Source: a virus | IMG/VR virus record: IMGVR_UViG_3300036766_000317 | Span: 1-64,000 of that record | Direction: 5' to 3' (one strand) | DNA length: 64,000 nt | Part shown: one piece after another, positions 22,675-38,797 of the stretch | Layout: the number at the start of each line of letters is the position of its first letter | Position numbering within the stretch: the stretch's first letter is position 1 | The notes under the pieces: generated by a model | What the model was told of the DNA's origin: nothing | The model's input: the letters and a program-made list of their open reading frames with translations, nothing else | Database searches by the model: none | Made by a program: the position numbers and the translations under genes

Positions 22675-23226
22675 TCATCGCACAATCCCTTTCCTAGAAA
22701 TATTATGTTCAGATATCCTTTTGTAATAAGTCGGATCTCCCCGTTCATTATCAATGACGGGAGTGCCATCCTCTTTAGTCCGACTGCCAGAAGGATCAAT
22801 CTTACCTCCAAACGTAAAGGATAAATCCAAATCCTTCCACATCGTATAAATCGTTTTCAACGTATCACGGATTTCCCGATAAACAGGATGCGCCTGTATA
22901 ACCCCTTTTTCCGTAGTATACATGGGGGAATCCAACGACATCTCAACCATCTGCATCTTAACAAGACTGATATACAAAGGTACTATCTGCATCCCAATCT
23001 TAAACAACATGGCTTTATCCAAATACCGATAGGTATCTAGGATTGCGCCATACAGAGCTTCTAGATACTGCATCTGCACAGAACATTTCCCTGTCTTACT
23101 GTAAACACATTTATCGGATACGACACAACGGAGAGGATCGCAATCAGAAACACCATCCCAAGCAAATAAGGAAACATCTTTGCGGACTAAACCTTTATCC
23201 AGAGTAAGATCGCCTACATTCTGCAT
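22675..23226 (-). CDS. probable terminase small subunit
   Basis: upstream of terL; G.IQAHP......R......W..L.LS resembles P27-family terS. Confidence 0.6.
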   Translation of the reverse strand: MQNVGDLTLDKGLVRKDVSLFAWDGVSDCDPLRCVVSDKCVYSKTGKCSVQMQYLEALYGAILDTYRYLDKAMLFKIGMQIVPLYISLVKMQMVEMSLDSPMYTTEKGVIQAHPVYREIRDTLKTIYTMWKDLDLSFTFGGKIDPSGSRTKEDGTPVIDNERGDPTYYKRISEHNISRKGIVR

Positions 23227-23375
23227 AATTGAATACCTCCTTCTGTGCCATTATAAATAACAGAGTATGAAGAAGATGTCAAGAATATATCAAAAGAAAG
23301 GCTGCCGATGGTTCTACCAAGGTATAAAAGATAATATAGAACGTGCGCGTGTAGAGTATAGAACAGAGAATAGTA

Positions 23376-23656
23376 ATCCAGTGGAAATCAAGTCCTTATA
23401 TTTTACTGGGTCGGAAAATTTTAGAAACCAAGAAACAGGATTCTGAAATTATAGTAATGAATCCATGGAAATGAAGTCCTTGTATTATATTGGAAGAAAA
23501 ATGCGGTAGAGAGATTGTGTGAGTACAATAGAAAGAAGTCCTTTATCCATAACTGGCCAAAAAAATGCGGGAGGGAAATTTATATTATAGAAGTATAGAA
23601 TGAATCCAATGGAAAACAGGTCTGTATATCTAACTGGGAGAAAAAATGCGGGAGGG
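23376..23656. repeat. four degenerate direct repeats upstream of terS
   Basis: ATCCA(G/A)TGGAAAT.AAGTCC..TAT...ACTGG...AAAAATGCGG units near 23376, 23461, 23524 and 23604. Confidence 0.75.
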
Positions 23657-23781
23657 ACCTACCCGTCTCTTTTTAAAAATGTCTCTGAGATAGAGTGTGA
23701 CGTACTTGTTATCATATTATAGCTACTCAAGAGCTACAATCAATTATTCAATGAATGTGATAGCAGATATCGAATTGAAAC

Positions 23782-23814
23782 AAAAAAACGAGCTACAATG
23801 TACTGTAGCTCGTT
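23782..23814 (-). terminator. intrinsic terminator of the 109-aa gene
   Basis: AACGAGCTACA-loop-TGTAGCTCG followed by T7 on the minus strand. Confidence 0.85.
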
Positions 23815-23826
23815 ATTTGTGCGTGT

Positions 23827-24156
23827 TTATGCACGCGCAATGATGCTTATGTGTCTTTTTGCTATCGCTGTAACTCTATCTTTCTTGATATGTCTCTTCA
23901 CACGCTTAATCGCATAGTCGAGTGAAGTAAACATGTTTCTTGATAAGAGTACGTTAGCGATATCACTAACGTTCTTGTCGTTCTTGCACATGACGTCGAT
24001 GATTTGATTTTGTTTTGTGCAATGTGTAAGCATGTCGTCAAGAGCTTCGTTGTCTTTTGTTTTCAACAAATTCACTGCTATTTTCGCAGTGCGTAATGCT
24101 TGTGCATTACGCTTGTTTACGCTGACGATAGCTTTTCTTTCGATTTTCTTATTCAT
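23827..24156 (-). CDS. basic 109-aa putative DNA-binding (HTH-like) protein lacking Gly, Pro and Trp
   Basis: own promoter, boxA, AAAGAGAG RBS and terminator; C-terminal 47 aa align without gaps to the 28629 ORF. Confidence 0.8.
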   Translation of the reverse strand: MNKKIERKAIVSVNKRNAQALRTAKIAVNLLKTKDNEALDDMLTHCTKQNQIIDVMCKNDKNVSDIANVLLSRNMFTSLDYAIKRVKRHIKKDRVTAIAKRHISIIARA

Positions 24157-24260
24157 TGCAATGCTCTCTTTCTTATAAATAGTGTTGACATATCATATAC
24201 TTACACGACTACAATTGAGCAGTCTTATTATAAGTAGTTGATCTGTTTCACTGTGTTCTA

Positions 24261-24272
24261 TGTTAAAGAACG
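24261..24272 (-). promoter_or_regulatory. boxA-like antitermination element
   Basis: CGTTCTTTAACA versus consensus (C/T)GCTCTTTAACA, just downstream of a promoter. Confidence 0.6.
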
Positions 24273-24290
24273 TGACTTCACTTGATATCA

Positions 24291-24318
24291 ATTTTATATC
24301 AATTCACTATCAAGTCAA
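24291..24318 (-). promoter_or_regulatory. sigma70-type promoter of the 109-aa gene
   Basis: TTGACT-N16-TAAAAT. Confidence 0.65.
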
Positions 24319-25176
24319 TATATATTTTCTTCAATCATATCAATACTTTCGGGGTTATTCTATTAATCTGCTATTATATCAATAAGATAGCACAAAACAG
24401 CAAAACAACACCCCGCCCATTGGACGGGACTCTTCCTGCCGCATGTGCTCTTACATAACCTCTTCATTCCAGACACCCAAATAATCCAGGACCAGGAGGA
24501 GGGTCTATCATAGTCCATACGTCGGGTTCTAATTAATCCGGATATTCTTAGATAACACCTTCCAATGGTAGGCGGATTATATAGATTATATGCCCTTTTC
24601 CACAATAGTAGGACGTGCATAAAAGGCTGAAAACAACATCTCCTCTCCGTAAAACAGTGCGGAAAAGCCCTTCCATAGGCAGGATTAAGATAAATCCATC
24701 TAAAATAAGCTGATTTCCTTAAAACGAGGTAATTTACCTTCTCCGTATAAATGTAATTTCATAAACAAGGATTACCTTCATTAATCAATAAGATATCCTA
24801 CTCCATTACCTATATGAATTAGTCAGTGGAGAGTCCTTTTTGCTATAGAGAAGAGCTTGATCCTTTGACTGTTAATAATCAGTATAAGGAAAGGAGGTTA
24901 TTTACCACTAAAAGATAGGAAAAGTAGTCTCACGTATGCGAGTAAAGAAAAAGGAGAGTATATAAACCTTCCTACGGACGGGTTATTGTAGAAGAGGAAG
25001 TTTTCCTATTGAACGGCACTACCAATGCCAAAGATAGGATATTAGCAGCTCATACTTCTACCGTAACAAGGTCCTTTGTAGTCCATAATCGGGAATGGAT
25101 GTGCAAGAATCAACGGTTTTCGTAGGATTGGCCGTACGCGTGTGTAGGGAAAGTGCCTTTCCCCACCGAATTACCC

Positions 25177-25234
25177 TTTCTCCGCCAGATACTGTTCTTT
25201 GCCATCTTTTCTCCGCCAGATACTGTTCTTTGCC
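25177..25234. repeat. 27-bp direct repeat in non-coding DNA
   Basis: TTTCTCCGCCAGATACTGTTCTTTGCC at 25177 and 25208. Confidence 0.9.
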
Positions 25235-25785
25235 TTTGCCTCTAAATACTCCTTCCTCTATTAGTTACATTCCTTCCCCATTAGATACTCCTTTTCTCCT
25301 TCGAACTATTCATTATAGACTCCTTTATCTATACAAGAATATCCATACCTTCGGATTACTTCTATTCTCTTATACAAGAAGAAAGAACCTCTTGAATGCG
25401 GATTGAGGATTATTTCCTTACTTCCTTATTAATGATAGTATTTTTTATTTGTCTGGTTAGTGTTTATCGGTTCTACCTATTATTGTATTTTATCAGAAAA
25501 TTGGTTGCTAGGTGTGAAATTCCTTATTTATTCGGAAATTCCTATTTATGAACTGTTGTGTGAAAATTATGCTGGGAAATGCGTGAGAAATGACGGTAGC
25601 CACATTATTCTTGCTTATCTGTTGTCACGTCTTGATTGAGAAAATGGTTATGATTATGGGTGCTCAAACCCATTGCCTAGGGATTCCTATGATTTTGCCA
25701 AGAAATGCTTTGGTGTGTCTGCTGTTTTGCCGAGAATTTGTAGGAACTATATGATATTATAGCTAATCATTTTTGAAAATATATG

Positions 25786-25814
25786 TTGACACACCAATAT
25801 TGATTTGTTATCAT
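25786..25814 (+). promoter_or_regulatory. major early sigma70-type promoter
   Basis: TTGACA-N17-TATCAT with AT-rich upstream region. Confidence 0.8.
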
Positions 25815-25829
25815 ATAGACAATAAAGAA

Positions 25830-26290
25830 ATAGTGATCTGAGTGTTTTCCAACTTAGATCGAAAGCTCAGAATGATCTTGAGATGCTCTTGACATAGTGA
25901 CCAGTAGCTCTTATGAGTGAAAAACCACACGAGTGAAAGTAGAGCAGTGACCAAAAGACTATTCAGGTTGGTTCAAAAACGATTAGATCACCGACTGCTT
26001 CTGCGAAAGAACTCAAATCCCGAAGAATCTGCTGATTGAACTGAAAAAGGCGAGTTAGGGCGGAGTTTGAATCCCTGGCGTGACATTCTTCTTTCTGGTT
26101 CACTTCTGATTCGATCTTCAACACGATATTTGGCGATGATATAGGCAAAACTGCTTGAGCCAATATAGTGCAGTAGGTCAGAAGTTCTTGATGGTCGTCC
26201 GTAGCTTGACGGTTACTACACAGAACTGCTTTGGGTATACTCTCTTTCTTTTCTCCTTGTCCGAGTATTGTTGTTTGGTGCTCGGACAGT
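25830..26290 (+). ncRNA. long structured leader/candidate ncRNA with boxA-like TGCTCTTGACA (25884-25894)
   Basis: no plus-strand ORF; several stems containing G-U pairs. Confidence 0.5.
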
Positions 26291-26296
26291 AAGAAA

Positions 26297-26575
26297 GTCG
26301 GATGGGGTTGTGTTAAACCTTCTGTGAAACATTAACCAGGAGGTATTAAAATGAATAAGACATGCAGAATCTACACCGATATAAATGGTAAGCATGTAAT
26401 GTTGTGGTATGTTCCAAATAAAAAGTATCCAAACTATAAAGACGGAAAATCAATCAAAGAACTTGTCAAATTTGCCAAAGAAAATGGGTTCACCGGATAT
26501 CATAATCAGTACGAAAAAGAAATAACCCAATTATAAATGATAAATCATAGAAGGTTTAATACAGCTCCATCCGAC
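26297..26575 (+). repeat. 31-nt inverted repeat (RNA duplex) enclosing ORF 26351-26536
   Basis: arms 26297-26327 and 26545-26575; all four DNA mismatches are G-U pairs in the plus-strand RNA. Confidence 0.9.
26351..26536 (+). CDS. hypothetical early protein
   Basis: AGGAGG RBS; 61 aa. Confidence 0.75.
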   Translation: MNKTCRIYTDINGKHVMLWYVPNKKYPNYKDGKSIKELVKFAKENGFTGYHNQYEKEITQL

Positions 26576-26603
26576 AATCTTGTATTAAATGGGAGGAAAT
26601 GCA

Positions 26604-27059
26604 ATGAGAAAAGCAACACATGGATATCGGATCTATGAAAATCGTGATGGCATCCGCATTGATTGCTTCAGAAGATCAGTTTCCAGGTATGAAGTTGCTA
26701 AATGTCGGATATTCGATCTTTGTCGGGATGTCCGATTGAAGCATCTGGAAAAAAGATACTTCTCCGTATGGGATGGCATCGACGCTGTTTCCAAAGTGAT
26801 CGTTGATAGAGATGGAGCTTATGTTGAAGTTCCTTATCTTCTTCCGGCCCTTACAGCAAGAGAACAAGCGGAGATGGATAAAGACTACATGCTCGCTTCT
26901 CGGAATCGGCTGAAGATGCAGAAGTTCGGTAGAACTCGTGGTGACATCACTTCTTGGATCAAACAAGAAGCTGGTGAACGTGAATTGTGCCGAATCATCG
27001 AGAAAAGTACGTTTGTACCAGGAACAAAGACATTGACAAGAGTGTTTGGGAGATCATAA
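26604..27059 (+). CDS. hypothetical early protein
   Basis: GGAGG RBS before ATG 26604. Confidence 0.7.
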   Translation: MRKATHGYRIYENRDGIRIDCFRRSVSRYEVAKCRIFDLCRDVRLKHLEKRYFSVWDGIDAVSKVIVDRDGAYVEVPYLLPALTAREQAEMDKDYMLASRNRLKMQKFGRTRGDITSWIKQEAGERELCRIIEKSTFVPGTKTLTRVFGRS

Positions 27060-27082
27060 ATTATTAAAAAGGAGAAGAGATT

Positions 27083-27238
27083 ATGGCTACAACAGATCAT
27101 AAAGTGGCTGTAAAAGAAGTTCAACAGCGGGTCTTTGATTTTGATTGGACAAAGATCGAAAATCCATTTAATAAGAACTTCAAACCGTCGGAAGAGTTGA
27201 AAAGGGCTTTAGAGAAGAAATTGGGGATAAAGTTATGA
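27083..27238 (+). CDS. hypothetical 51-aa protein (below ORF-track cutoff)
   Basis: AAGGAG RBS, MATTDHK... Confidence 0.6.
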   Translation: MATTDHKVAVKEVQQRVFDFDWTKIENPFNKNFKPSEELKRALEKKLGIKL

Positions 27239-27334
27239 AGAAAGAAAAGGATAAGGAAGTAGAGCATAGTCGGAAACTTCATAAGGCCATATTGAAGGTT
27301 ATCCGAAAAGCTCAGAAGCGTAGACGGTAGGAAA

Positions 27335-27386
27335 GTCAGAAGGGTGGAAACATTAATGACATACGGAGAGTCCTAAGTCTCTCGTA
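27335..27386 (+). ncRNA. twister ribozyme, permuted (copy 1)
   Basis: GUCA-GAAGG-[GUG GAAA CAU]-UAA-UGAC...GAGAG-UCCUAAGU-CUCUC; AGG/CCU pseudoknot covariation. Confidence 0.8.
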
Positions 27387-27434
27387 ACTACCAATGGTTT
27401 GGTTGTATAAACCCCATAGGAAAGGAGAATTGAA

Positions 27435-27785
27435 ATGTTATTAGTAGCCATTTTTACAGACGAGAATAGCCAAGAGGATCTGGATTTGCTGTTCACAGAC
27501 CTGGAGGAAACATCATGTGAAAAGGTTCTGGTATTTGATGATGGGAATAAGGTCGTCATGAGAGTTCCCGATGAAATTCCCGATCCTGATTTTGTCGGAA
27601 CCATCGAAGAATATTGGATGTTCGTCATGAATGATTCAAGATGTCCATGCTGTCATCCATCAGAAGAATCAGATGTTTCCGCTGTTCATGAAGTAAAAAC
27701 CCTGAAACAATTTCGGGAATACAGCAATCGGCTCAACAATGGAGAAGGTCCTTACGAGGAACTTCTGAAAGATTTGAAAGATTGA
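27435..27785 (+). CDS. acidic hypothetical protein
   Basis: AAGGAG RBS. Confidence 0.7.
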   Translation: MLLVAIFTDENSQEDLDLLFTDLEETSCEKVLVFDDGNKVVMRVPDEIPDPDFVGTIEEYWMFVMNDSRCPCCHPSEESDVSAVHEVKTLKQFREYSNRLNNGEGPYEELLKDLKD

Positions 27786-27836
27786 GGTCTCACCGGCATC
27801 ATCAGAAATGATGGTGTCTAATGGGTTCTTAATTCA
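27782..27836 (+). ncRNA. intergenic structured motif, family 2 (divergent copy A)
   Basis: 10-bp GAAA-capped stem, outer stem, and alternative 3' hairpin UGGGUU/AAUUCA. Confidence 0.5.
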
Positions 27837-28306
27837 AAAGAAAGGAGAAAGAAAATGAAAACCACCCGTACAGTGTATTTTTGTACAATTTGTAATACCC
27901 AACTTGATGTTTGTGGTTGGGGAAATCGTGCAGAATGTCCGGAATGTAACAAGATGGTTAATGTGAAATCAGTGGAAGTTCCGATTCTGAAAAAGGAGAA
28001 CTGAGATGCCAGTAGAAATCAAAATGATAGCCGGTGCTTTTCTTACTATCGGCATAACCGGAGCCGTGATCTGCATAGCTTCTCATGAATTTGTAGGAAG
28101 TTTGTGGTATATAGCTATTACCATCATTGCTGTTTGGGTTATCTTTAAAAAGTAAAGGAGGAAAAATTATGGGTAAAGAAAAAGAAGTATGCTCTTGGTG
28201 CGGAAAAGAATTGCATGACAACGGGGAAACCACATGGTGTGATTGTGGTTGGTGGGATGCTTTGCCCACAAGAGCCGAAGCCGAAGCCGAAACGAAGTAG
28301 ACAATC

Positions 28307-28540
28307 ATGAGGACACTGGAAATAATTCCAGTGTCCGAAGGGGCTGTCTACATCCCCAATTCAGAAGGGAAGGAAAGAGTTATGCAAATGTCCAATTTAG
28401 AATCAATCAAGATTCGTTGCCAAGAACAAGGATTCTTTGCCCGAATACATCGGTTCAAGAAAGGCAAGAAGCGGATGTTTCGTAAGAAAGAACGGATAAA
28501 TCGGCACATAACCAGGAAAGTTCTTCATATTGAACAGTAG
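28307..28540 (+). CDS. hypothetical basic protein
   Basis: ORF in the early operon. Confidence 0.55.
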   Translation: MRTLEIIPVSEGAVYIPNSEGKERVMQMSNLESIKIRCQEQGFFARIHRFKKGKKRMFRKKERINRHITRKVLHIEQ

Positions 28541-28600
28541 TTTGATGGTAGCGGATTAGCCATGAGAAATCATGGCTTTTCCGCTGCAATTAAGCAGCGA
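28540..28600 (+). ncRNA. intergenic structured motif, family 2 (copy B)
   Basis: UAG-CGGA-UU-[AGCCAUGA GAAA UCAUGGCU]-UU-UCCG-CUGC-AAUUAA-GCAGC. Confidence 0.7.
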
Positions 28601-28628
28601 TTAATTCCTTAAAGGAGGAAAGAAGAGT

Positions 28629-29258
28629 ATGAGTAAAAAATCGAAGAAGGTTGCGGAGAAGAAGGCATTGACTCCGATTAAGAAGTTGACGCCGATTGCA
28701 AAGGCGGACGAGTCAATGAAAGCCAAACAGACTGCGGCGATTGCGGAACTCAAGGCAAAATCGAAGGATGCTGCACCCATAGAGGCACCCGTCGTTGCAG
28801 CTCCTGTCCGTCCCGAAATGCCTGCTGACTTCTGTATGGAGAAAGCAGACTGGGACGGCGCTGGTGTGTGCTACGATGCAGGAAGTAATAACTGCGGAAC
28901 GTGTACGAAGGATTTTCCTGAGACCGTTGCCGTGTGCATCGAGCGCATGAAATTCCTCGGTGGTACTGTGAAAACGGCAAAGACGAAGAAAGCTGGAACA
29001 GCGAAGGCTCGGGTTGCCAAGAATGGTGCGAAACCGCAATGCCTCGTCATTGATGATCTGTTGCGAGCATCAACGGCAATGGCAGACATGATCGCCTCGT
29101 TTGCTGCAATCGCATACGCTGGAGATGCAAAAGCGGCAGAAGGTCGTATCAATCGGCACCTGAAATCCATTCGTGTCGGCGAGTACGTCAGATCGGCTGT
29201 AATGAAGGAATTCATTGCTTATCTGGCCGTTGCTGCGCCGGCAGCTCCCGCTGCTTAG
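28629..29258 (+). CDS. Ala/Lys-rich protein with Cys cluster and C-terminal HTH-like domain
   Basis: C...C..C..C...C region; Q...IDD...RINRHLK domain; biased codon usage. Confidence 0.75.
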   Translation: MSKKSKKVAEKKALTPIKKLTPIAKADESMKAKQTAAIAELKAKSKDAAPIEAPVVAAPVRPEMPADFCMEKADWDGAGVCYDAGSNNCGTCTKDFPETVAVCIERMKFLGGTVKTAKTKKAGTAKARVAKNGAKPQCLVIDDLLRASTAMADMIASFAAIAYAGDAKAAEGRINRHLKSIRVGEYVRSAVMKEFIAYLAVAAPAAPAA

Positions 29259-29266
29259 TGAGAAAT

Positions 29267-29330
29267 TGCAGAGGGCACGGGGTGAGAAAGTTTCATCCTG
29301 TGTAATGCACACTACCGTCCCAAGTCGGTG
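29267..29330 (+). ncRNA. twister ribozyme, permuted (copy 2)
   Basis: GCA-GAGGG-[P1 hairpin]-UAA-UGC-AC...ACCG-UCCCAAGU-CGGU. Confidence 0.9.
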
Positions 29331-29354
29331 AGAAAATCTAAGAAAGGAGAGAGT

Positions 29355-29585
29355 ATGAAAAAGTATTTGGTAGAAGTCCGAAAGAAAGGTGAGAAATTCA
29401 GAGAACCTGGTGAACTGATTGAGACAGTAAATACCATTCTCAAAGCGGAAGAAGTAGGAAATTTCAACCCGATCTTTTGCATCTACAAAGACAAACGTGT
29501 CATGGTAAGTTCTAAAGAAGGAGATTTGAGTGATCCTTTTCGTCGGGAAACTTCATATCTGGAAAGTCTTTATATTGAAATCTAA
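29355..29585 (+). CDS. hypothetical protein
   Basis: AAAGGAGAGAGT-ATG start. Confidence 0.7.
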   Translation: MKKYLVEVRKKGEKFREPGELIETVNTILKAEEVGNFNPIFCIYKDKRVMVSSKEGDLSDPFRRETSYLESLYIEI

Positions 29586-29611
29586 CCACCAACCAAGAAA
29601 GGAGTATTGCA

Positions 29612-29779
29612 ATGAACAAACTTCAGAAATTGGTAGCACAATCGGTAATCGTCGTCCTGTACGGAAACCAGCTTCAAGATGAGAAGTTTGACCAAAGACA
29701 GTTACTTCTCGCCAAAGCAATGTACGAGAAAGAAGTGGACAGACAGTTGAGAAAAGGGTTGGATCTTCGCAATATGTAG
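29612..29779 (+). CDS. hypothetical 55-aa protein
   Basis: AAGGAG RBS, MNKLQKLV... Confidence 0.6.
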   Translation: MNKLQKLVAQSVIVVLYGNQLQDEKFDQRQLLLAKAMYEKEVDRQLRKGLDLRNM

Positions 29780-29834
29780 TTTCAGCGTGGGAAGCAGAAA
29801 TCTTCTGCTTCTCGCGGTGTACCTACACCAATAA
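29775..29834 (+). ncRNA. intergenic structured motif, family 2 (copy C)
   Basis: UGUAG...CAG-[14-bp stem]-GUGU-ACCU-ACACC-AAUAA. Confidence 0.65.
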
Positions 29835-29853
29835 CTATGAGAAAGGAGAGAGT

Positions 29854-30222
29854 ATGGGAAATTCAATAAGATTGCACAAAGAGTTCGGTGTAAATCCGAC
29901 AATCCTAAAATGCTTCCTCTGCGGAGAGGATAAAAATGAAATTGCTCTGTTGGGCGCTTCCTATAAAGGACAAGCCCCTATGCACATGTGCATAGACCAA
30001 ACACCTTGTGACAAGTGTAAGGAATACATGAAACAAGGTGTAATCCTAATCTCCGTGAGAGATGGGGAATCAGGAAGTGATCCTTATCGCACAGGGGGTT
30101 GGTGCGTTGTCAAAAGAGAAGCAATGACCAACATCATTGATGATCCAAAATTGCTTGAGAAAGGAGCGATGTTTGTTCCTGATCCAGTATGGAAACAATT
30201 GGGTCTTCCAAAATTTGTATGA
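29854..30222 (+). CDS. conserved-looking phage hypothetical protein with two CxxC motifs
   Basis: GVNPT...CFLCG...PCDKC. Confidence 0.75.
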   Translation: MGNSIRLHKEFGVNPTILKCFLCGEDKNEIALLGASYKGQAPMHMCIDQTPCDKCKEYMKQGVILISVRDGESGSDPYRTGGWCVVKREAMTNIIDDPKLLEKGAMFVPDPVWKQLGLPKFV

Positions 30223-30286
30223 TTAACCTCAGCTCAGACATGCCAAGAAATTGGTATGTCTGCTGGTGAGATCAATCACCAACTAA
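30220..30286 (+). ncRNA. intergenic structured motif, family 2 (copy D)
   Basis: GAAA-capped stem then CUG-GUGA-GAUCAA-UCACC-AACUAA. Confidence 0.65.
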
Positions 30287-30309
30287 CTAAAGGAGGAAAG
30301 GAGAGTATT

Positions 30310-31077
30310 ATGACATCCAGCGTTCCAAAAGAAGAAATCATCTCGAAAATTATGAAGTTGCTGGCTCTGGGCAGTTCTGAAAAGAACGACAATCCTCATG
30401 AGCGGGAAACTGCTTCAAGGATGGCCGCAAAGCTCATGGCTGAGTGGAGCATCGACTTTGCAGAACTCAGAAGTTCCAAGCCATCAGAGGATGCTTTCGT
30501 CACTTATGAGGTGTCAGGTTCGGAAGACCGAAAAGTGGATTTTGAATCCTCCCTTGCTGGCAGTATTGCAAGGGCTTTCGATTGTAAGATCATCAACACC
30601 TGGACAAAATCATTGGATCATCGGTGGGTTATTGCTTTTGTCGGATCAAAGCATGATCTGGAAATCTCCGTCTATTTCTTCAAACATATTCGGAGAACGA
30701 TGTATGCAATGTCCATTAAAAATGTGACCGTCGAAACAGTGAGGCCCAGAAACGGCAGACGAGCTGCCGGTACAGATGTAAATATGGCTCGGAGAAACTA
30801 CTGCTTCGGTATGGTTGAGACGATCAGCACCCGCATGGAAGACCTCTACAAAAAGCGGGAAGAGTTCATCCCGTCAGATTGCCGAGCCCTCGTCATTGTC
30901 AAGAAACAGGGATTGGAAAAATATTTCAATCAGCAATATCCGAACAGAGTTTCTGGTAGAAGAACTTCTTTACGAGGAGATTTAACAGCATTCGGCAAGG
31001 GGCAGGAAGATGGAAAGCGTGTGAACCTCAGTCGGCCCATTAGCAGTAATAATCAACAATCGGCCCAAATTGGATAA
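30310..31077 (+). CDS. DUF2786 domain protein
   Basis: KIMKLLAL...N.HE...A...A.KLM..W.I; C-terminal A...G...G....L. Confidence 0.8.
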   Translation: MTSSVPKEEIISKIMKLLALGSSEKNDNPHERETASRMAAKLMAEWSIDFAELRSSKPSEDAFVTYEVSGSEDRKVDFESSLAGSIARAFDCKIINTWTKSLDHRWVIAFVGSKHDLEISVYFFKHIRRTMYAMSIKNVTVETVRPRNGRRAAGTDVNMARRNYCFGMVETISTRMEDLYKKREEFIPSDCRALVIVKKQGLEKYFNQQYPNRVSGRRTSLRGDLTAFGKGQEDGKRVNLSRPISSNNQQSAQIG

Positions 31078-31092
31078 AAGGAGGAAAGGAGC

Positions 31093-31236
31093 ATGAAGTC
31101 TTTCAACATTTATTTCAGGGACCTCAATGAAGATGCTCAAAAGAGGTTATTGGAACGGTTTGAAACAACTCCCGAAGAGGAAAATTGGGATACAGATGTG
31201 TTTCCAATAGCAATACTCGATCGGGAAGAGGAGTAA
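31093..31236 (+). CDS. hypothetical 47-aa protein
   Basis: AAGGAG RBS. Confidence 0.6.
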   Translation: MKSFNIYFRDLNEDAQKRLLERFETTPEEENWDTDVFPIAILDREEE

Positions 31237-31327
31237 TTCCAGTTCGGAAATGGGAGCAATTCTGAGAGGTTGAGTGTTAAGCATTCGGTAGGAGTTGTTC
31301 CTGTTTCTTCTGGTGGAATTATCCACC
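31233..31327 (+). ncRNA. intergenic structured motif, family 2 (long copy E)
   Basis: UAAUUCCAG-UU-[long stem]-UU-CUG-GUGGA-AUUA-UCCACC. Confidence 0.65.
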
Positions 31328-31353
31328 TTTACTATAAGAAAAGGAGAAGAGAG

Positions 31354-31533
31354 ATGAAGAATGTTACTATGGAAACGAAAGGTCAGAATTTGGTTCTGAC
31401 GGTCGATCTGTCAAAATCCTTTGGAGCCAGTGCTTCCGGGAAGACGATCATCATCGGAACGACTGAAGGCAATCAGCCCGTTGCCGGACATCCCGGTGTT
31501 AGTGTGGGGGTGAACGTCTACAAAAAGAAGTAG
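31354..31533 (+). CDS. small conserved-looking protein (G.S.SGKT..I.TT.GN)
   Basis: AAGGAG RBS before ATG 31354. Confidence 0.75.
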   Translation: MKNVTMETKGQNLVLTVDLSKSFGASASGKTIIIGTTEGNQPVAGHPGVSVGVNVYKKK

Positions 31534-31589
31534 GCAGAGGGCTCCCGCTTCGGCGGGAGTAATGCACAATCTCGGTCCCAAGTCCGAGA
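31534..31589 (+). ncRNA. twister ribozyme, permuted (copy 3)
   Basis: GCA-GAGGG-[CUCCCGC UUCG GCGGGAG]-UAA-UGC-AC-AAU-CUCGG-UCCCAAGU-CCGAG. Confidence 0.92.
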
Positions 31590-31607
31590 AATTAGAAAGG
31601 AGAAAGT

Positions 31608-31811
31608 ATGGGATATGCAATGATGGTAAGCGAATGTGGAGCATGTCACCAGATATTTTGCTACAATCCCCATCTGGTGCCCAGTCTAAACAATGTTCCT
31701 TTTTGTAAACGGTGTGTCGATGCTTCAGCACCTGAAAGAATCAAAAGGGGATTGGTTCCAATCAAATATTCAGAAGAAGCATACAAACCGATGGACGAAT
31801 GTGAACTTTAA
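31608..31811 (+). CDS. small Zn-finger-like protein
   Basis: CGAC and CKRC; RBS. Confidence 0.7.
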   Translation: MGYAMMVSECGACHQIFCYNPHLVPSLNNVPFCKRCVDASAPERIKRGLVPIKYSEEAYKPMDECEL

Positions 31812-31962
31812 ATTTGAAAGGAGAAATCTCTATGAAACCGTTATACTGTACGCAAAACAAAGGCAAGTGCGAAACTTGCTCCCTTACCAACTATGGTCGG
31901 GATTGTCGGAATGTTCCGATAGCTATAAATCGGAAAAAGGCAAAGCCTGAGAAGTAACTTTG

Positions 31963-32018
31963 GCAGAGGGCTCCGTCAGAACTGACGGAGTAATGCACAA
32001 TTCCGGTCCCAAGTCCGG
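31963..32018 (+). ncRNA. twister ribozyme, permuted (copy 4)
   Basis: GCA-GAGGG-[CUCCGUCAG..CUGACGGAG]-UAA-UGC-AC...CCGG-UCCCAAGU-CCGG. Confidence 0.92.
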
Positions 32019-32051
32019 TTTGTAGCTAAAACAAAAGGAGGAAAGAGAGAT

Positions 32052-32963
32052 ATGAGTGAAACAATGGAAGGGTTGGCCTATGAGCTAACATCCGCAGAGC
32101 GGAAAGATGTTCGTGATCGTTATCCGAAGACCTACTTCCCAAGTCCGGTCTTAGAACCGGTGTGGGCAGGTCGTCGGGAACTCCGCAGAATTCCAGACAA
32201 GTTTGCCATTGTCGATCAATGTCGTCCAGGACCCTTAGACGCATCGAATCAGGTATTCGGGATCTGTTCGGATCAGTACAAAATCGTTCCCTTTGAAGAC
32301 GTGGTGCATATGGTAGAAAATTCAGTCGGAAAATTGACTGAATACGGGAAGGTTCAAATCTGCCCGCACACCTATCTTGACGGAGCCAGATTAAACATTG
32401 GCATCAAATTTCCTGAGATGAAACATGAAATCAGGAAACTCGATTCCATTATTCCGAAAGTAGAGGTGTTTTCCTCTTATGACCTATCAACAAAGTTGAT
32501 GGGTCGTTTCGGAGCATTCCAGCTTAAATGCCTGAATGGGGCGGGTATCTGGAAGTCCTTCAAGAGCTTTGCAAAAAGGCATCTCCAGAATCTGTTTCTG
32601 AATGAACTCGGAAACAACATCAGTGAAGGTATGGCTCTTTTCGGGGAACAGGTTGATTCGTGGAAAAAGTGGACTGAACTGAAGTTAGACCAGAAACTCT
32701 ACGATACTGTTTGGGATGAACTCCCTTTCTCTGCTGCGGAACGTATCAAGATCGAAGCATTACCCGAAATCGGTACGAATCTTCAGTTGGGTCAAGCGAT
32801 CAAAGGAAATTCCCTTGATCTTTGGAGCCTTTCATCGGTATTGACACAATTCGCTACCCATGGTGTCAAAAGCGAATTGCGCCGTATCGAACTGGAACCG
32901 GCAATCGCAAGAGTGATGGACCTCACTTTCGACCGAGCCGCTGTTGCGGGACTCGTGCACTAA
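32052..32963 (+). CDS. DUF932/DUF945-family protein
   Basis: GICSDQYKIV, SYDLS, F...CLNG, KRH motifs. Confidence 0.75.
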   Translation: MSETMEGLAYELTSAERKDVRDRYPKTYFPSPVLEPVWAGRRELRRIPDKFAIVDQCRPGPLDASNQVFGICSDQYKIVPFEDVVHMVENSVGKLTEYGKVQICPHTYLDGARLNIGIKFPEMKHEIRKLDSIIPKVEVFSSYDLSTKLMGRFGAFQLKCLNGAGIWKSFKSFAKRHLQNLFLNELGNNISEGMALFGEQVDSWKKWTELKLDQKLYDTVWDELPFSAAERIKIEALPEIGTNLQLGQAIKGNSLDLWSLSSVLTQFATHGVKSELRRIELEPAIARVMDLTFDRAAVAGLVH

Positions 32964-32996
32964 GAAACAACGAACTGAGCCAGAAAGGAGGTACTT

Positions 32997-33233
32997 GTGG
33001 AGAATGCTTCTATAAAAATGTTAACCGTTGATGATTGTAATCTCCGAATGACTGAGCTAACAAAAGAGTTGGAAGAAGCAATTGAGAAATTGGGCCATTG
33101 TGAAGCTGTGGATTTGCTTGCGGCTAAGATTGCTGTTTGGGAAAGAGTCCGGCATCATTTGGTAAGAGGACAAATCATCACAATTGATGGGGAAGAAAAA
33201 CTGAAGATGTGGGAAAACGTTTTATCGGCATAA
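32997..33233 (+). CDS. hypothetical protein
   Basis: AGGAGG RBS, GTG start. Confidence 0.65.
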   Translation: MENASIKMLTVDDCNLRMTELTKELEEAIEKLGHCEAVDLLAAKIAVWERVRHHLVRGQIITIDGEEKLKMWENVLSA

Positions 33234-33235
33234 CC

Positions 33236-33298
33236 GCAGAGGGCGGACAGTCAGAAATTGGCTGTCCGTAATGCACTATCTGAGTCCCAAGTCTCAGA
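33236..33298 (+). ncRNA. twister ribozyme, permuted (copy 5)
   Basis: GCA-GAGGG-[GAAA-capped P1]-UAA-UGC-AC...UCUGAG-UCCCAAGU-CUCAGA. Confidence 0.92.
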
Positions 33299-33321
33299 AA
33301 TTCTATTAAAGGAGGAAAGGG

Positions 33322-33582
33322 ATGGAACCGATTCAAGACAATTTCTTCAAGAGGTTTCGGAAGAAGGTGGAAGGTATCTTCTACCGAACTCGCGGAAATA
33401 AAGGGACTGCCGATCTTGATCCGATCATTCGGATCGGTCGTCACCATGGTGGGGGTGCTCGTCTTTCTGCTATTTCTTTTGGCGAAAAGAAAGCGTCTCC
33501 CACACTCCGAAAGTACCGACAGCACAGAGATCGAGTAAACAAATTGGGAGCGATCTCCCGCAGGAAGAACCGCATTAATTAG
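33322..33582 (+). CDS. Arg/Lys-rich small protein
   Basis: AGGAGG RBS; flanked by twister copies 5 and 6. Confidence 0.7.
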   Translation: MEPIQDNFFKRFRKKVEGIFYRTRGNKGTADLDPIIRIGRHHGGGARLSAISFGEKKASPTLRKYRQHRDRVNKLGAISRRKNRIN

Positions 33583-33640
33583 CAGAGGGCAGGGCCTATT
33601 GAGGCCCTGTAATGCTACATAGCCAGTCCCAAGTCTGGTT
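33580..33640 (+). ncRNA. twister ribozyme, permuted (copy 6)
   Basis: AGCA-GAGGG-[CAGGGCCU..AGGCCCUG]-UAA-UGCU-AC...AGCCAG-UCCCAAGU-CUGGUU. Confidence 0.9.
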
Positions 33641-33666
33641 AAACTAAAGAGAAAGGAGAGAGTATT

Positions 33667-34786
33667 ATGATTACCAAAGAGGATGCTTTGAAGCTGAAAT
33701 ATCGGGATGAACTGCATTTCGGAGAATGTAGAAAGAAGGTCTCTCCCAGAGGCGGTGTAAAAATTACCAATACCATCGTCCGAGTAAACGGGAAAGTCAA
33801 AACGTGGAAACAGAATCTGAGTAGGTTTGAAGTTCCGATCAAACATGGACTATACGATCATAGTTATGTTGATGAGCGGAATGCTCATGATTTCCATCTC
33901 CCGAAAGACTGCCCGTTACTGAAGGAGTAAATTTATGCACCTACTTCATGAGACTACAGTCAAGAATACAGATGGAACTTATGAAATCACCGTCTACATC
34001 GTCGAAGATGGAAAACGAAGAGGTCCTTACACTTATCTGATTCCATCGGATAAAGAAGTCAGGGACTTCCTTGCTCTGTATCAAAAAGGAAAAAGAGATG
34101 GGTCAAGATTTCATGGGAAAGCCCTATCCCTTCTTAACAAACACCGAACCAGGTTAATCAGAAAATAGGAGGAAAGAGAGCATGAAAAAATCGCAGGTGG
34201 CATTGGCTAACATGATTCGTATAGCCAAAGCATACGGTAATACACATACGGTAGAGATGGAACAAGCTGAGAAAGCCCTTGCTGAACTTTTGACTGAAAA
34301 AGGTCATTCAGTAAGTGATTGGAAATGTGTTCAATGTGATCAGGATCAGTGGGGGAAAGATGTAACCCTCTCGTCTGTCGCAGACGGAGGTGTTCCCATC
34401 TGTCCCTATTGCGAGAACGATATGATCTTGGTTGAAGAAAGATGGGTGGAGGTGGAGCCATGAAGAAGGAATACACCGATGTCAAACTCAAGATGACCCG
34501 TCGCAAGCTGATTGCCCTCGACAAAAAGGATATAGGGAAATGGACACATCAGGAATGTGTTGAGGCAGATCGGCTTATCCAAAACACAGCCATTCGGAAT
34601 CTGAGGAAGAAATTATCCTTCTTCCAGGGAGGAACAGGAAGACTTGTTTCCAACTATGCCATACTGATGGCTCAGTTCCACTACGGATCGGCAGAAACAG
34701 ACGACTTCCTTACAGCAATGGGCTGTTATGAGGATTGGATGTTCTCCGAGGAGCAGAACAAGAAACGGCATTCCAAAAAGTCTTAA
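33667..34786 (+). other. four consecutive small hypothetical ORFs (33667-33930, 33935-34168, 34182-34463, ~34460-34786)
   Basis: tight packing with RBSs; 33667 has RVNGKVKTWK....F.VP.KHGLY; 34182 has two CxxC. Confidence 0.7.
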
Positions 34787-34848
34787 AGTCAGCAGATTGA
34801 GCGGGAACCATTTCCCGCTCTTTCTGGTGTTTTTAAGACACCAATAAA
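34780..34848 (+). ncRNA. intergenic structured motif, family 2 (copy F)
   Basis: CUUAAAG-UCAG-CAGA-UU-[GAGCGGGAA..UUCCCGCUC]-UU-UCUG-GUGU-UUUUAAG-ACACC-AAUAA. Confidence 0.75.
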
Positions 34849-34867
34849 CCAAAGGAGGAAAGAAAGT

Positions 34868-35350
34868 ATGAAGAAAACTTGTGATATTTGCAAGACCTAT
34901 TGGAGAGTTCGGAATGAAAAGAAGACCGAACATCCGTGCCATCCCTATCAGAACCCGATGGAAAAAGTCTGTCAGGATTTTGAGATGGAATGGACTCAAG
35001 AAGCCTGTCTAAGAAAATATCCGAGAGTGGTGGCCCATCTGATCTGTGCCAGTCTCGGCTATTTTACACCTCAATCAGCAGCAAATGCCATTTCGTTTTA
35101 CAAACACGGAAAGGCGTTTTTCTGCGAGTGGTATTCCCATATGACCAAATATTCTCGGGATAACTACAAGGGTGACTATTTTGATGAAGTCATCTGTAAA
35201 CGGGTTGGGGAAGAAACTCTGAGATTGGCATTTGTAGGTCGTCATTCCCATCATGGCTATATGACCGAGATTAAGCAAGCCCGACATCTTGTGGCCGCAG
35301 AATTGAAAACTTCGGGAGCTACATCGGGAATGCTTGCATCTTGGTTTTAG
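34868..35350 (+). CDS. hypothetical protein with Cys/His-rich N-terminus
   Basis: AGGAGG RBS. Confidence 0.7.
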   Translation: MKKTCDICKTYWRVRNEKKTEHPCHPYQNPMEKVCQDFEMEWTQEACLRKYPRVVAHLICASLGYFTPQSAANAISFYKHGKAFFCEWYSHMTKYSRDNYKGDYFDEVICKRVGEETLRLAFVGRHSHHGYMTEIKQARHLVAAELKTSGATSGMLASWF

Positions 35351-35412
35351 GCTGAATATAGCGGGTTGGGCAGGAAGCGTCCTGCTCTTCCTGGTGCATT
35401 CAGTACCAAATA
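35351..35412 (+). ncRNA. intergenic structured motif, family 2 (copy G)
   Basis: UGAAU-AUAG-CGGG-UU-[GGGCAGGA..UCCUGCUC]-UU-CCUG-GUGC-AUUCA-GUACC-AAAUAA. Confidence 0.75.
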
Positions 35413-35431
35413 AAGAGAGAAAGGAGAGGGT

Positions 35432-35761
35432 ATGAAAACAGTAGATATTATGGAACGTCTGAAAATTCCAGAATGGAAGGCGAAGGTTGTCAATGTGCTT
35501 ACCAAAGAACACGCCTCATCCCATTCCGATGTTGACGACATCCTCGGAATTATTGAAACCCTTCTTGAAGGGTACGGGGTAGAACCACTCAGGGGAGATC
35601 ATGTTGATAATTACTATATGGATATCAACATCCTCTACATTAATTTGGGGGACACATACACACCCACCGTTCTGTATGATACACTCCTAAACAGATTCTT
35701 TATCTGTTCGTGGGGTGATTATATTGAATCCAAACCGAAACGATTTCCGATGAATGCTTGA
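35432..35761 (+). CDS. hypothetical protein (GYGVE...Y.N.GDTY..T...F....WGD..E)
   Basis: RBS; motif-like pattern. Confidence 0.75.
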   Translation: MKTVDIMERLKIPEWKAKVVNVLTKEHASSHSDVDDILGIIETLLEGYGVEPLRGDHVDNYYMDINILYINLGDTYTPTVLYDTLLNRFFICSWGDYIESKPKRFPMNA

Positions 35762-35818
35762 GAATAGCAGATTGGACGGGAATTTCCCGTCCTTTCTGGT
35801 GTGCTTAAACACCAATAA
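35757..35818 (+). ncRNA. intergenic structured motif, family 2 (copy H)
   Basis: UUGAG-AAUAG-CAGA-UU-[GGACGGGA..UCCCGUCC]-UU-UCUG-GUGU-GCUUAA-ACACC-AAUAA. Confidence 0.75.
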
Positions 35819-35833
35819 AAAGAAAGGAGAGGG

Positions 35834-36420
35834 TATGGACAGAAAAATGTCGAGTGATCTGGATAACTACATTACCGGACATTACGGGGAAGATCAGTTC
35901 AAAAGACCTCGGAAAAAAGATAAAAAGGGGAAGGAATCATTGGTCCATGAATTAGAACACCAGATGAAGAACCTTAACGTCAGTCAGATGTTGGAATTAG
36001 TCAAGAGATCGGGAAATACGGAAAAACGCAGATTCCGATTAAAAGGCCCTACGGGCAGTTTAGATGGAACTATCCATGATGCCGATTTCGGTATCTTGAC
36101 TATTGACGAAGTACCAGAGTTCTTTCTGGCAAAAGATTTCTTGTTGGCCAATGACGTAGTTTGGGAACTCATTAACTAAACAGAGAAAGGAGATTAGCAT
36201 GGAAGAGCCAATCAAAATTCCAGAGAAGGACAAATTTGTCCGAAATTGTCCGGGTCCCAGATATAAAGTAATTTCAGGTCCTGGAGGGCATTACGTCTAT
36301 GATTACAAGTCTCTGGACGTGGTGAGGAAAGACGGGAAATTCTTTATGGGCAAAGAACCGTCGGAAGCCAGAGAGTTCCTTCAATCTCTAAATGAAGAAG
36401 CTCCCCTTATAGAAAGGTAA
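35834..36420 (+). other. two small hypothetical ORFs (35834-36179, 36199-36420)
   Basis: AAGGAG RBSs. Confidence 0.65.
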
Positions 36421-36569
36421 GGATGGTAATCTATGAAATGTGACCACTGCAATATCGAATTGAAAAAACGCAAGACCCCTCCAAGAACCGCGACAATTGA
36501 CGGGGGAAAGTATTATGACTATTTTCAATGCCCAAAATGCAAAACGAATTATGCCAAAGCCAAAAAGTA

Positions 36570-36623
36570 GCAGAGGACGCTGCTTCGGCAGCGTAATGCA
36601 CAAATCCAGTCCCAAGTCTGGAT
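36570..36623 (+). ncRNA. twister ribozyme, permuted (copy 7)
   Basis: GCA-GAGGA-[CGCUGC UUCG GCAGCG]-UAA-UGC-AC...AUCCAG-UCCCAAGU-CUGGAU. Confidence 0.88.
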
Positions 36624-36648
36624 AAAATAAGAAAAGGAGGAAAGAGCT

Positions 36649-37104
36649 ATGCCAAAAAACGTAAGAAATTTCTGGATCGAAGCAGATGTCGATGGGGGAA
36701 CTCCCATCGGAGCAGGCCCTAAATCCAAAGATGGAGGATTTTCTCTGTCCATCTTCATGCGAGACAAAGGATTCGTCAAGAGGGTCGCCAACATCTCAGG
36801 AGTCGGGGGAAGTGAATTGAAATTATCAATTCATACGGAAGATGGTAAATATTTACAGTATACTACACAAAGGTAACAGATGAAAAAGGAGGAAAGAGCT
36901 ATGCCAATCGAAACAGATTTCACCAATTTGCTCAAGCATATCGATGATGCTTCTGATGGATTGGAACAAAAGGTCGAATCGACGGAAGAGGAGTTGGACA
37001 CTTTGAATACTCTCCTTACGAGAAAAAAAGAGCTTGTCGATAAAATCAACTCCCTCGCCGAAGAGATTGAGGACTTCCTCAACGACGCCAATTCCCTCAT
37101 CTGA
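36649..37104 (+). other. two small ORFs (36649-36876; acidic coiled-coil 36901-37104) with identical 24-nt RBS/start blocks
   Basis: AAAAGGAGGAAAGAGCTATGCCAA precedes both. Confidence 0.7.
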
Positions 37105-37106
37105 AT

Positions 37107-37161
37107 GCAGAGGACAGCCTCAACAGAGGCTGTAATGGACATCTCGGTTCCAAGTCCGAGA
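37107..37161 (+). ncRNA. twister ribozyme, permuted (copy 8)
   Basis: GCA-GAGGA-[CAGCCUC..GAGGCUG]-UAA-UGG-AC..CUCGG-UUCCAAGU-CCGAG; GGA/UCC covariation, one P2 mismatch. Confidence 0.8.
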
Positions 37162-37186
37162 AATAAATTAAAGGAGGGAAGAGAGT

Positions 37187-37892
37187 ATGCACAAAAGACC
37201 CACACCAAATCAAGAGAGGTCTTTCCGTCACTTCTTCGGAAAATCTACCAGTGTTTACTGGAATCCTTTATTTGGATTTGATATCGTTCAATTTGATGCC
37301 GACATGCAGTCCGAACAAGGATACGTTGAGGATGGAAAAACAAGCCTTCGGGAATTTCTCGTCCAGAAATTCGGTCAAGAGGCTTCGGATCTAGTAAACT
37401 CTTTAATAGGAGGTGTTTAATGGAAAAGAAAACAGTTGTGATTTTCCGAAAGTTCCCGGAGGGGGATATTATAGCCATGTTCCCCGAAATTCAGGCGGAT
37501 CAAAATCGTTGTGATTGTCTGAGCTATCAGCATATCGGCCAGCATGGTCCTGCTTCATATTTTCTGGTAGACCGAACGAAATTAGCTATTGCTGCTGAAT
37601 ATGCAGAGCTGAAAGCGGAGCTTGAATCAATCGGCTATGATCTGATAATCCGAAAACGGATCAACAAGCATTGGTATGAGGTAAAGGAGGGGTAAATATG
37701 CGTTCATGGAGGTGGTATATACACTTTCCACAAGATGCGTATGCTTTAGGACCAATTCATTTTGAAAAGAGGGATTACACAAAGCCTCCTAATGAAAGGG
37801 ATGTCCGACAGTATGCGAGAGAGTGGGAGGGTGTGAAACGATTGCCGACGGGGTTTTCTTGTTGGTCTGCTGAGTATTGGTCTGCTGAGTAA
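37187..37892 (+). other. three small hypothetical ORFs (37187-37420, 37420-37695, 37698-37892)
   Basis: RBSs and tight coupling; 37420 has VIFRKF...A.FP...Y.H.GQH...EY..L..EL..IGY. Confidence 0.7.
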
Positions 37893-38116: not shown

Positions 38117-38147
38117 AAAATCCAAGTAGAAAAAGGAGAAGGAGTGT

Positions 38148-38773: not shown

Positions 38774-38797
38774 TTCAATCCTAAAAGGAGGAAAATC

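Follow-up and report, generated by a model that had tools for sequence, protein, structure and literature searches.

Small orphan genes abound in the early regions of phages. Many of them serve to take control of the host or to counteract its defences, and it is poorly understood how they are acquired and expressed while the regulation of neighbouring genes is left undisturbed. The locus described here offers a concrete arrangement and raises the question of why the first gene of a phage early operon, complete with its ribosome-binding site (RBS), should lie between two distant sequences that are complementary to each other. It belongs to the virus record IMGVR_UViG_3300036766_000317 of IMG/VR, which is 91,824 bp long and judged complete, and whose first 64 kb (64,000 nucleotides, nt) are here called the window. 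A model reading the letters had proposed (the original prediction) that the + strand RNA forms a 31-bp duplex around an open reading frame (ORF) of 61 amino acids (aa), and that this duplex is a processing stem for RNase III. The answer given here, which is held with moderate confidence, is that the two arms form a selected long-range helix in the + strand RNA, representing the extended second hairpin (P2) of a conserved leader, and that this helix acts as a socket for small genes and as a probable RNase III site. The parts of the helix are as follows:

26297–26327, + strand: 5' arm of P2, the 31-bp helix (repeat search, folds and arm comparison).
26545–26575, + strand: 3' arm of P2, beginning 8 nt past the stop codon of the enclosed gene and ending 28 nt ahead of the next start codon.
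26291–26294, + strand: AAGA, 5' strand of a basal extension of P2, pairing with UCUU at 26578–26581 across a 2x2 internal loop (probability 0.84–0.99).
26578–26581, + strand: UCUU, 3' strand of the same extension (repeat search and pair probabilities).

A repeat search detected the arms as an inverted repeat at 26291–26327 and 26545–26581, each 37 nt long and with 217 nt between them. The core of this repeat (26297–26327 with 26545–26575) gives 31 uninterrupted pairs in the + strand RNA, 27 of which are Watson-Crick and four G-U or U-G, namely G26306-U26566, U26308-G26564, G26312-U26560 and G26324-U26548. The base-by-base layout thus agrees with the original prediction, both in the 31-nt complementarity and in the statement that all four mismatches at the DNA level are G-U in the plus-strand RNA. 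When folded, the + strand RNA of 26240–26620 reaches a minimum free energy (MFE) of -107.1 kcal/mol (z = -7.5) with the helix included, and the reverse complement of the same segment folds more weakly (-89.3 kcal/mol, z = -3.3). The mean pair probability of the helix is 0.996 for each of three assumed 5' ends, and the energy of the isolated P2 duplex is -52 kcal/mol. Such a helix is unique in the genome: in a scan of all 91,824 bp for uninterrupted helices, with G-U allowed and loops of up to 1500 nt, the runner-up measures 18 bp, and the chance expectation for a helix of at least 31 bp is, by a rough estimate, about 1e-5. In an RNAduplex scan of 25800–40000 the P2 helix also tops the list, at -54.2 kcal/mol, with the second pairing at -43.5 kcal/mol. 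No Rfam family matches here at its gathering score, and the hits with E up to 1 in 25780–26700 are at chance level only.

Relatives were sought through the gene that follows the helix, which is the first conserved gene of the operon:

26604–27059, + strand: gene 2, a conserved 151-aa gene of unassigned function, used as the anchor for finding relatives.

Nine homologs of gene 2 were found, at 50–89% identity, every one of which begins with MR(K/N)ATHGY. The protein belongs to no Pfam or PHROG family, and its AlphaFold model, with a predicted local distance difference test (pLDDT) value of 59.6, gave no Foldseek match at E <= 0.001. Six loci encoding gene 2 were recovered by a profile scan, one from IMG/VR (L004) and five from Joint Genome Institute (JGI) metagenomes (L005–L009); these constitute the comparison, with the contigs behind homologs P0001–P0003, P0006, P0008 and P0009 standing outside it. 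Other searches added little. No similar DNA turned up among the INPHARED phages, scans of IMG/VR with the single proteins of four neighbouring genes returned no relatives, and a search with a 21-mer pattern from the leader gave one true relative (the L004 contig) together with four chance matches in one unrelated phage. A 17-mer lying past the 3' arm gave chance matches only in IMG/VR and in bacterial genomes, a profile scan of bacterial genomes showed no prophage copy, and none of the public RNA runs was listed as containing the sequence.

Three loci (the window, L006 and L007) carry the long helix, and their arms are homologous over the full length, with an identity of 65–71% between the window and L007 and of 94–97% between L006 and L007. 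When the 31 pair positions are compared, 17 are invariant, eight have changed in both arms without loss of pairing (positions 6, 7, 11, 20, 21, 22, 27 and 28) and six have changed on one side. Four of these six are exchanges of Watson-Crick for G-U pairs, while the other two are position 16, a G-U in the window and U.U in L006 and L007, which is the sole internal mismatch, and the terminal position 31, an A-U in the window and A.A in L006 and L007. Position 28 is A-U versus G-C between the otherwise near-identical L006 and L007, and the window has the G-U intermediate. A further change has been seen in contigs of two sediment runs (X2 and X3) other than X1, the run of the phage's own sediment sample, where 26548 T>C turns G26324-U26548 into G-C; contigs of four DNA runs gave short pieces only, in which no joints across the enclosed gene were seen. 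Across the three loci there are 13 appositions which are not Watson-Crick, nine of them G-U on the + strand; the remaining four are accounted for by L006 and L007, both of which have U.U at position 16 and A.A at the terminal position 31. None of the 13 is A.C, an apposition which - strand RNA or a strand-neutral DNA structure would also yield. In each of the seven loci, moreover, the + strand gives a better fold than its complement. The covariation, the G-U pairs on the + strand and the better folds of that strand therefore indicate that the pairing is under selection and that the selected molecule is the + strand RNA, as had been predicted. The RNA-level reading appears strongly supported by this comparative evidence, and the search for compensatory changes in relatives that had been recommended as a check gave a positive result.

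What the helix encloses is a gene with its own Shine-Dalgarno (SD) sequence, referred to here as the cargo:

26337–26344, + strand: SD region CAGGAGGU of the cargo, with AGGAGG at 26338–26343, 7 nt ahead of the ATG and unpaired in the final fold.
26351–26536, + strand: cargo, a 61-aa orphan gene (from the ORF list), with its stop codon at 26534–26536.

The duplex thus holds the RBS and the whole 61-aa ORF, and this ORF, described in the original prediction as first in the early operon, is indeed the first plausible one on the + strand after the early promoter or promoters. The top of the stem ends 10 nt ahead of the cargo SD and the 3' arm opens 8 nt past the cargo stop, therefore a ribosome can load on the cargo and finish it while unwinding at most the top of the helix. 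The 61-aa protein belongs to no Pfam or PHROG family and matches itself alone among 5.8 billion proteins.

The relatives differ in what they enclose. Upstream of gene 2 they have a common layout, in which an invariant GGTATACTCTCTTTCTTTTCTCC is followed by a first hairpin (P1), a spacer AAGAAA, P2, and then a short A/U-rich spacer with the SD of the next gene. Within this layout P2 occurs in several states:

L005: P2 as a plain hairpin without a gene, 13 bp with an 8-nt loop.
L004: P2 as a plain hairpin without a gene, 10–11 bp.
L008: P2 as a plain hairpin without a gene, 10 bp.
Window, L006 and L007: P2 as a long helix with cargo, 30–31 bp around 217–304 nt.
L009: P1 and P2 replaced by two other hairpins, the second followed by UUUUAUUAU.

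The gene in the loop is therefore an insertion into a hairpin that exists without it in relatives. The cargo encodes 61 aa in the window, 95–99 aa in L006 and a 66-aa zinc-ribbon protein in L007; the three genes are mutually unrelated, have no paralog in the phage genome, and none of their proteins belongs to a Pfam family. The expectation that related phages would enclose different genes was thus confirmed. Between L006 and L007 homology stops exactly at the inner ends of the arms, so that the swapped unit comprises the SD, the coding sequence and a short tail. The arms coincide exactly with the limits of this unit and thus provide a fixed frame, or socket, for the exchange of cargo. A different solution is found in L005, where a 53-aa Cys-rich ORF (776–937) lies after P2, takes the SD adjoining P2, which serves gene 2 in the other phages, and overlaps the start of gene 2 by ATGA. 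The extra gene sits after P2 and uses the adjoining SD, and insertions therefore seem to respect the fold. In L009 (region 1100–1800) the replacement hairpins are followed by a consensus promoter, TTGACA-17-TATACT (1215–1243), and by a gene resembling GIY-YIG/NUMOD3 homing endonucleases directly before gene 2, a cassette that marks the slot as a hot spot for mobile DNA.

The fate of a duplex of this length is most likely cleavage by RNase III. The cleft of the enzyme takes about 22 bp, and its paired cuts in Escherichia coli lie 16–1080 nt apart (PMC6212723). In Coxiella, an intervening sequence (IVS) in helix 45 of the 23S rRNA, with an ORF in its loop, is cut by RNase III in the middle of its 28-bp stem (PMC4990558). 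Given the size of the cleft and the Coxiella precedent, a perfect 31-bp duplex in a messenger RNA is therefore very likely a substrate. Our estimate for cleavage, provided that the helix forms, is about two in three. The 3' arm also lies at a gene junction, just past the stop codon and about 30 nt ahead of the next start, and the first reading of the sequence places twister ribozymes in similar slots further down the operon. A family search detected no RNase III gene in the phage genome, having detected the family in 8 of 14 control genomes. The enzyme is present in nearly all bacteria, and the host, judged by the sigma-70-type promoters and strong SDs, is bacterial.

The proposed sequence of events also involves the leader upstream of the helix, for which the following features are relevant:

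26236–26257, + strand: invariant element TATACTCTCTTTCTTTTCTCC(T), which may contain a -10 hexamer.
L004 2862–2884 and L008 354–376: the same element in relatives.
26249–26257, + strand: UUUUCUCCU, the 3' part of the invariant element and the anti-SD strand of a predicted helix, P0.
26250–26256, + strand: UUUUCUCC, within the CU-rich tract.
26258–26288, + strand: leader hairpin P1, 13 bp with a 5-nt loop (folds).
26591–26599, + strand: GGGAGGAAA, the SD of gene 2 and the 3' strand of P0.

The invariant element occurs once in the window (up to 3 mismatches allowed) and is identical in the window, L004, L005, L007 and L008, with one extra T in L006 and one substitution in L009. It contains TATACT, with the nearest TTGACG 24 nt upstream, and the next 17 nt are all pyrimidines; the element may accordingly be either a second promoter or part of a long leader. 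It has also been observed that GGTATACTCTCTTTCTTTTCTCC persists where the adjacent hairpins and genes have strongly diverged, and that SD pairing accounts for its 3' part only. The sequence of P1 varies between lineages (L004, L006/L007 and L008), its pairing and its place being kept, and L009 too has a hairpin of different sequence there. In the six loci which keep the layout of leader, P1 and P2, the MFE fold is a three-way junction with P1 and P2 as branches, closed by P0, a predicted pairing of the CU-rich tract with the SD region of whichever gene follows P2. The probability of P0 in the window is 0.8–0.99, with the RNA started at 26236, at 26248 or at the upstream promoter. P0 itself is a prediction of the folding model. 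Should selection act on the closed junction as a unit, a gene inserted in the P2 loop would require a far stronger stem to rejoin the two sides, and one inserted after P2 would have to adopt the SD. Each solution is observed, the long stem in the window, L006 and L007 and the SD takeover in L005.

Under the proposed mechanism, a small orphan gene with its own SD would have entered the loop of P2, whose stem measures about 30 bp in its presence and 10–13 bp in the relatives without a gene. By closing a loop with upwards of 200 nt of translated RNA, the long stem would act as a clamp keeping the leader fold, within which, as long as it is intact, the CU-rich tract would pair with the SD of the gene after P2. 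Host RNase III would then cut both strands, releasing a single-gene message of about 250 nt with paired ends and leaving a new 5' end downstream, in parallel with the seven twister ribozymes further down the operon.

The arms may also time translation of the cargo. In a transcript truncated before the 3' arm, 26317–26324 (ACCUUCUG) is predicted to pair with 26337–26344 (CAGGAGGU) at -9.4 kcal/mol. The folds of L007 and L006 show the same nascent hairpin, formed in L007 by ACUUCCGUG and CAUGGAGGU (-12.6 kcal/mol) and in L006 by UUCCAU and AUGGAG. The 3' arm contains AGAAGG or GGAAG. On these models it is a possibility that the 5' arm serves as an anti-SD and the 3' arm as an anti-anti-SD, so that the cargo SD would be freed only once the end of the message has been made: before synthesis of the 3' arm the outer end of the 5' arm would pair with the cargo SD, and translation would be licensed on completion of the message. 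A fuller proposal, in which the arms are at once an RNase III excision site, an anti-SD/anti-anti-SD pair and homology for the exchange of cargo, is put forward tentatively, as a possibility that we would not yet favour.

A different switch had been suggested in the original prediction, with the 3' arm pairing alternatively with sequence next to the RBS of gene 2. The complementarity is real, amounting to 10 bases with one G-U (UUUAAUACAG at 26555–26564 and UUGUAUUAAA at 26580–26589), and the two-state design was rejected: the hairpin is worth only -4.1 kcal/mol, it does not appear in the MFE structure of the 3' segment once freed (window, L005, L006 and L007), a segment whose folds are no better than shuffles, and TTGTRTTAAA occurs in the window 18 times against 14.6 expected, without enrichment.

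Several points weigh against the interpretation of P2 as a gene socket cut by RNase III. Cleavage, the RNA ends and the structure are predictions. Following a cut, P0 and the base of the stem could keep the leader fragment annealed, which makes activation of gene 2 by cleavage doubtful. The G-richness of the + strand (GC skew +0.19) already favours G-U pairs there and adds to the asymmetry of the folds. The three cargo-bearing helices share ancestry, so the long stem with cargo is a single evolutionary event, and no twister was found in the short loci of the relatives. Both strands of P0 are near-invariant and consequently show no covariation, any SD pairs with a CU-rich tract, and L004 and L008 have not retained the outer part of P0. 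Something else must therefore account for the unchanging 5' part of the tract, perhaps a promoter or a protein site. Lastly, the nascent anti-SD hairpins are statistically weak (z = -0.4, -1.7 and -2.4).

Some of these points bear equally on the closest rival, in which the helix is never cut and acts as a structural and translational device, closing the junction so that the CU-rich tract sequesters the next SD, as in MS2, and timing translation of the cargo on an intact RNA. Such a device would account for the three-way junction with P0 predicted, in the window with high probability, in all the loci that keep the layout, and for the nascent-state hairpins of the three cargo-bearing loci. The P2 of relatives without a gene (10–13 bp) is moreover shorter than typical RNase III substrates, suggesting another ancestral role, and the MS2 leader provides a precedent (PMC4615214). 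It is nonetheless hard to see how a perfect 31-bp duplex would be shielded from RNase III, and the lack of covariation in P0 and the weak statistics of the anti-SD hairpins count against this explanation too, which we consider rather unlikely. A further explanation removes the RNA from consideration, with the arms kept mainly as DNA homology for recombination between co-infecting phages, in the manner of the promoter-early stem-loop (PeSL) cassettes, and the RNA pairing as a by-product of secondary or no importance. The coincidence of the exchange borders with the inner ends of the arms in L006 and L007 fits this idea, as do the hot-spot character of the slot (the GIY-YIG cassette in L009 and the extra gene after P2 in L005) and the PeSL precedent itself (PMC2839356). 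Recombination, however, needs no complementarity between the arms, the eight two-sided compensations and the G-U pairs on one strand show selection on RNA pairing, and PeSLs are direct repeats with a promoter and a terminator, whereas the arms here are inverted and have neither. We therefore regard this explanation as improbable.

The two remaining explanations are far less probable still. The original prediction had itself named a DNA inversion or a transposon end as the finding that would speak against an RNA duplex, and an inverted repeat of 31–37 bp flanking a 217-bp segment whose content varies among relatives does invite comparison with the terminal inverted repeats of a transposon or miniature inverted-repeat transposable element (MITE), or with an invertible segment. 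The features of such elements are absent: no target site is directly duplicated, AAGA and TCTT on the flanks being complementary rather than repeated, the arms have no other copy in the genome, no recombinase is adjacent, the cargo has the same orientation in all three loci, the mismatches are strand-asymmetric, with G-U on the + strand only, and the base of the stem survives in L005 in the form of a plain hairpin. Taken together, these findings rule out transposon ends or an invertible segment as the main explanation, and a DNA-level element of this kind is scarcely credible. Nor is it easy to see the helix as a transcription attenuator or terminator hairpin with a gene in its loop by chance. 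In L009 and L008 the second hairpin is G+C-rich and is followed by a U-rich run (UUUUAUUAU and UUAUUUAC, respectively), as an attenuator would require. In the window, however, the 3' arm is followed by AAUCUUGUAUUAAAU and not by a U tract, a terminator scan of 26545–26600 was negative, a helix around a translated loop of 217 nt would probably not form early enough in the RNA exit channel to cause termination, and the conserved gene 2 directly downstream must be transcribed. The probability of an attenuator is accordingly very low. The selected + strand helix, as a gene socket and probable RNase III site, is the interpretation retained here.

The operon that begins with this helix lies beside a broad divergent boundary. 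Large - strand ORFs, including a terminase-like gene, fill 71–23226, and the ORFs from 26351 onward are co-oriented on the + strand. Between these blocks, the roughly 3 kb of 23226–26350 hold no ORF above 120 aa and have a G+C content near 0.37, and the sign of the GC skew flips. The promoter assigned to the early operon is located in this region:

25786–25814, + strand: sigma-70-type early promoter TTGACA-17 nt-TG-TATCAT, with 11 of 12 matches and TG present, about 420 nt upstream of the leader element.

This promoter is conserved in L005–L007 and partly in L004. The approximately 420 nt past it (25786–26235) contain no plausible + strand ORF, and patches of the sequence are conserved down to relatives with 50% protein identity. 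One such patch is a boxA-like TGCTCTTGACA at 25884–25894, which is conserved in relatives and is not within 3 mismatches of the 13-mer of the E. coli boxA. A 66-aa ORF on the - strand (25963–26163) was considered as a gene and set aside, being countered by indels of 23 and 9 nt among relatives. The divergent promoters on the - strand (24318–24291) and the + strand (25786–25814) share an inverted 16-nt sequence, GAAAATATAT(A/G)TTGAC (24314–24329 and 25775–25790), covering the -35 hexamer and the A/T-rich stretch upstream; this common sequence may be an UP element or an operator.

Further along the early operon, Rfam detected seven twister-P5 ribozymes (RF02684) on the + strand, at 41.7–64.4 bits against a gathering score of 37.6:

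29267–29329, 31533–31587, 31962–32018, 33235–33296, 33581–33638, 36569–36621 and 37106–37159, + strand: twister-P5 ribozymes.

An eighth twister, placed at 27335 by the first reading of the sequence, was not detected by Rfam at E <= 0.1. With seven twisters in the operon, RNA cutting is already a theme of the early region. The RNAduplex scan, made without a shuffle control, also lists further strong long-range pairings in the early operon, of -36 to -43 kcal/mol, such as 30105–30149 with 30600–30644 and 29220–29264 with 30750–30794; in some of them, twister copies pair with one common upstream segment. Elsewhere on the + strand, the helix scan revealed a 17-bp hairpin at 62082–62118 with one G-U and a 3-nt loop (CAATGTGGACCTTGTTG / CAACAGGGTCCACATTG).

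The different parts of the proposal would have different implications. Should the helix be an RNase III site, the processing logic of rRNA and of IVSs would be applied to the protein messages of a phage, alongside self-cleaving ribozymes. If the anti-SD timing holds, it would constitute a simple device coupling the start of translation to completion of the message. On the fuller proposal, the socket together with the twisters would mean that the early operon is run as a set of individually released messages. Both the RNase III and the timing ideas could be reused as insulating parts for synthetic operons.

The closest known counterparts are the leader-trailer helices of rRNA, likewise long-range, covarying helices of at least 20 bp which flank an excised RNA near the start of a polycistronic transcript. 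The phage helix resembles them in spanning 31 bp plus a 4-bp extension around 217 nt of RNA, with its pairing kept by compensation, and by this likeness cleavage would be expected to release a unit that retains a residual paired stem. Unlike the rRNA helices, the phage element encloses a translated 61-aa gene with its own SD, its cargo varies, and cleavage is here predicted. In phages, host RNase III is known to process early polycistronic RNA at the R0.3–R1.3 sites of T7 and in the N leader of lambda, affecting stability and translation. These sites are local hairpins of about 20 bp located between genes, often with an internal loop and a single cut. The phage helix, by contrast, is a perfect 31 bp with no internal loop, and its strands are placed 217 nt apart on either side of a whole gene. 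The Coxiella IVS offers a nearer geometry, being an insertion in the loop of a conserved hairpin with a terminal complementary stem of about 28 bp and an ORF in the loop (PMC4990558). It differs in its location within rRNA and in its ORF, which belongs to one family (S23p) and is probably not expressed, with RNase III removing its SD. The phage element lies in a messenger RNA leader, outside rRNA and the S23p family, has a strong cargo SD outside the stem and carries unrelated orphan cargos.

Two further systems share parts of the arrangement. In the MS2 leader, the SD of the maturation gene is base-paired to a sequence further upstream, with three hairpins enclosed between the two, and translation is possible only briefly (PMC4615214). 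In the phage leader the predicted partner of the SD of gene 2, the first conserved gene, is likewise an upstream pyrimidine-rich sequence, this pairing would enclose hairpins in a multi-branch junction, and a kinetic window for co-transcriptional translation is plausible. Unlike MS2, however, this is the messenger RNA of a DNA phage, there are two hairpins instead of three, one of which carries a whole gene, and the SD pairing is predicted without covariation. The PeSL cassettes of T4-type phages (PMC2839356, PMC4122927) are similar in that conserved motifs frame orphan genes in a hypervariable early region and mark the borders of exchange. They are direct repeats, each a promoter with a terminator hairpin, acting through DNA recombination, whereas the arms of the phage helix are complementary to each other and covary. 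In the open-access literature, no description was found of protein genes in phage operons enclosed by long-range RNase III helices. When these systems are considered together, the feature probably represents an extension of the processing helices of rRNA and IVSs, and of the RNase III sites of phages, to the protein genes of a phage.

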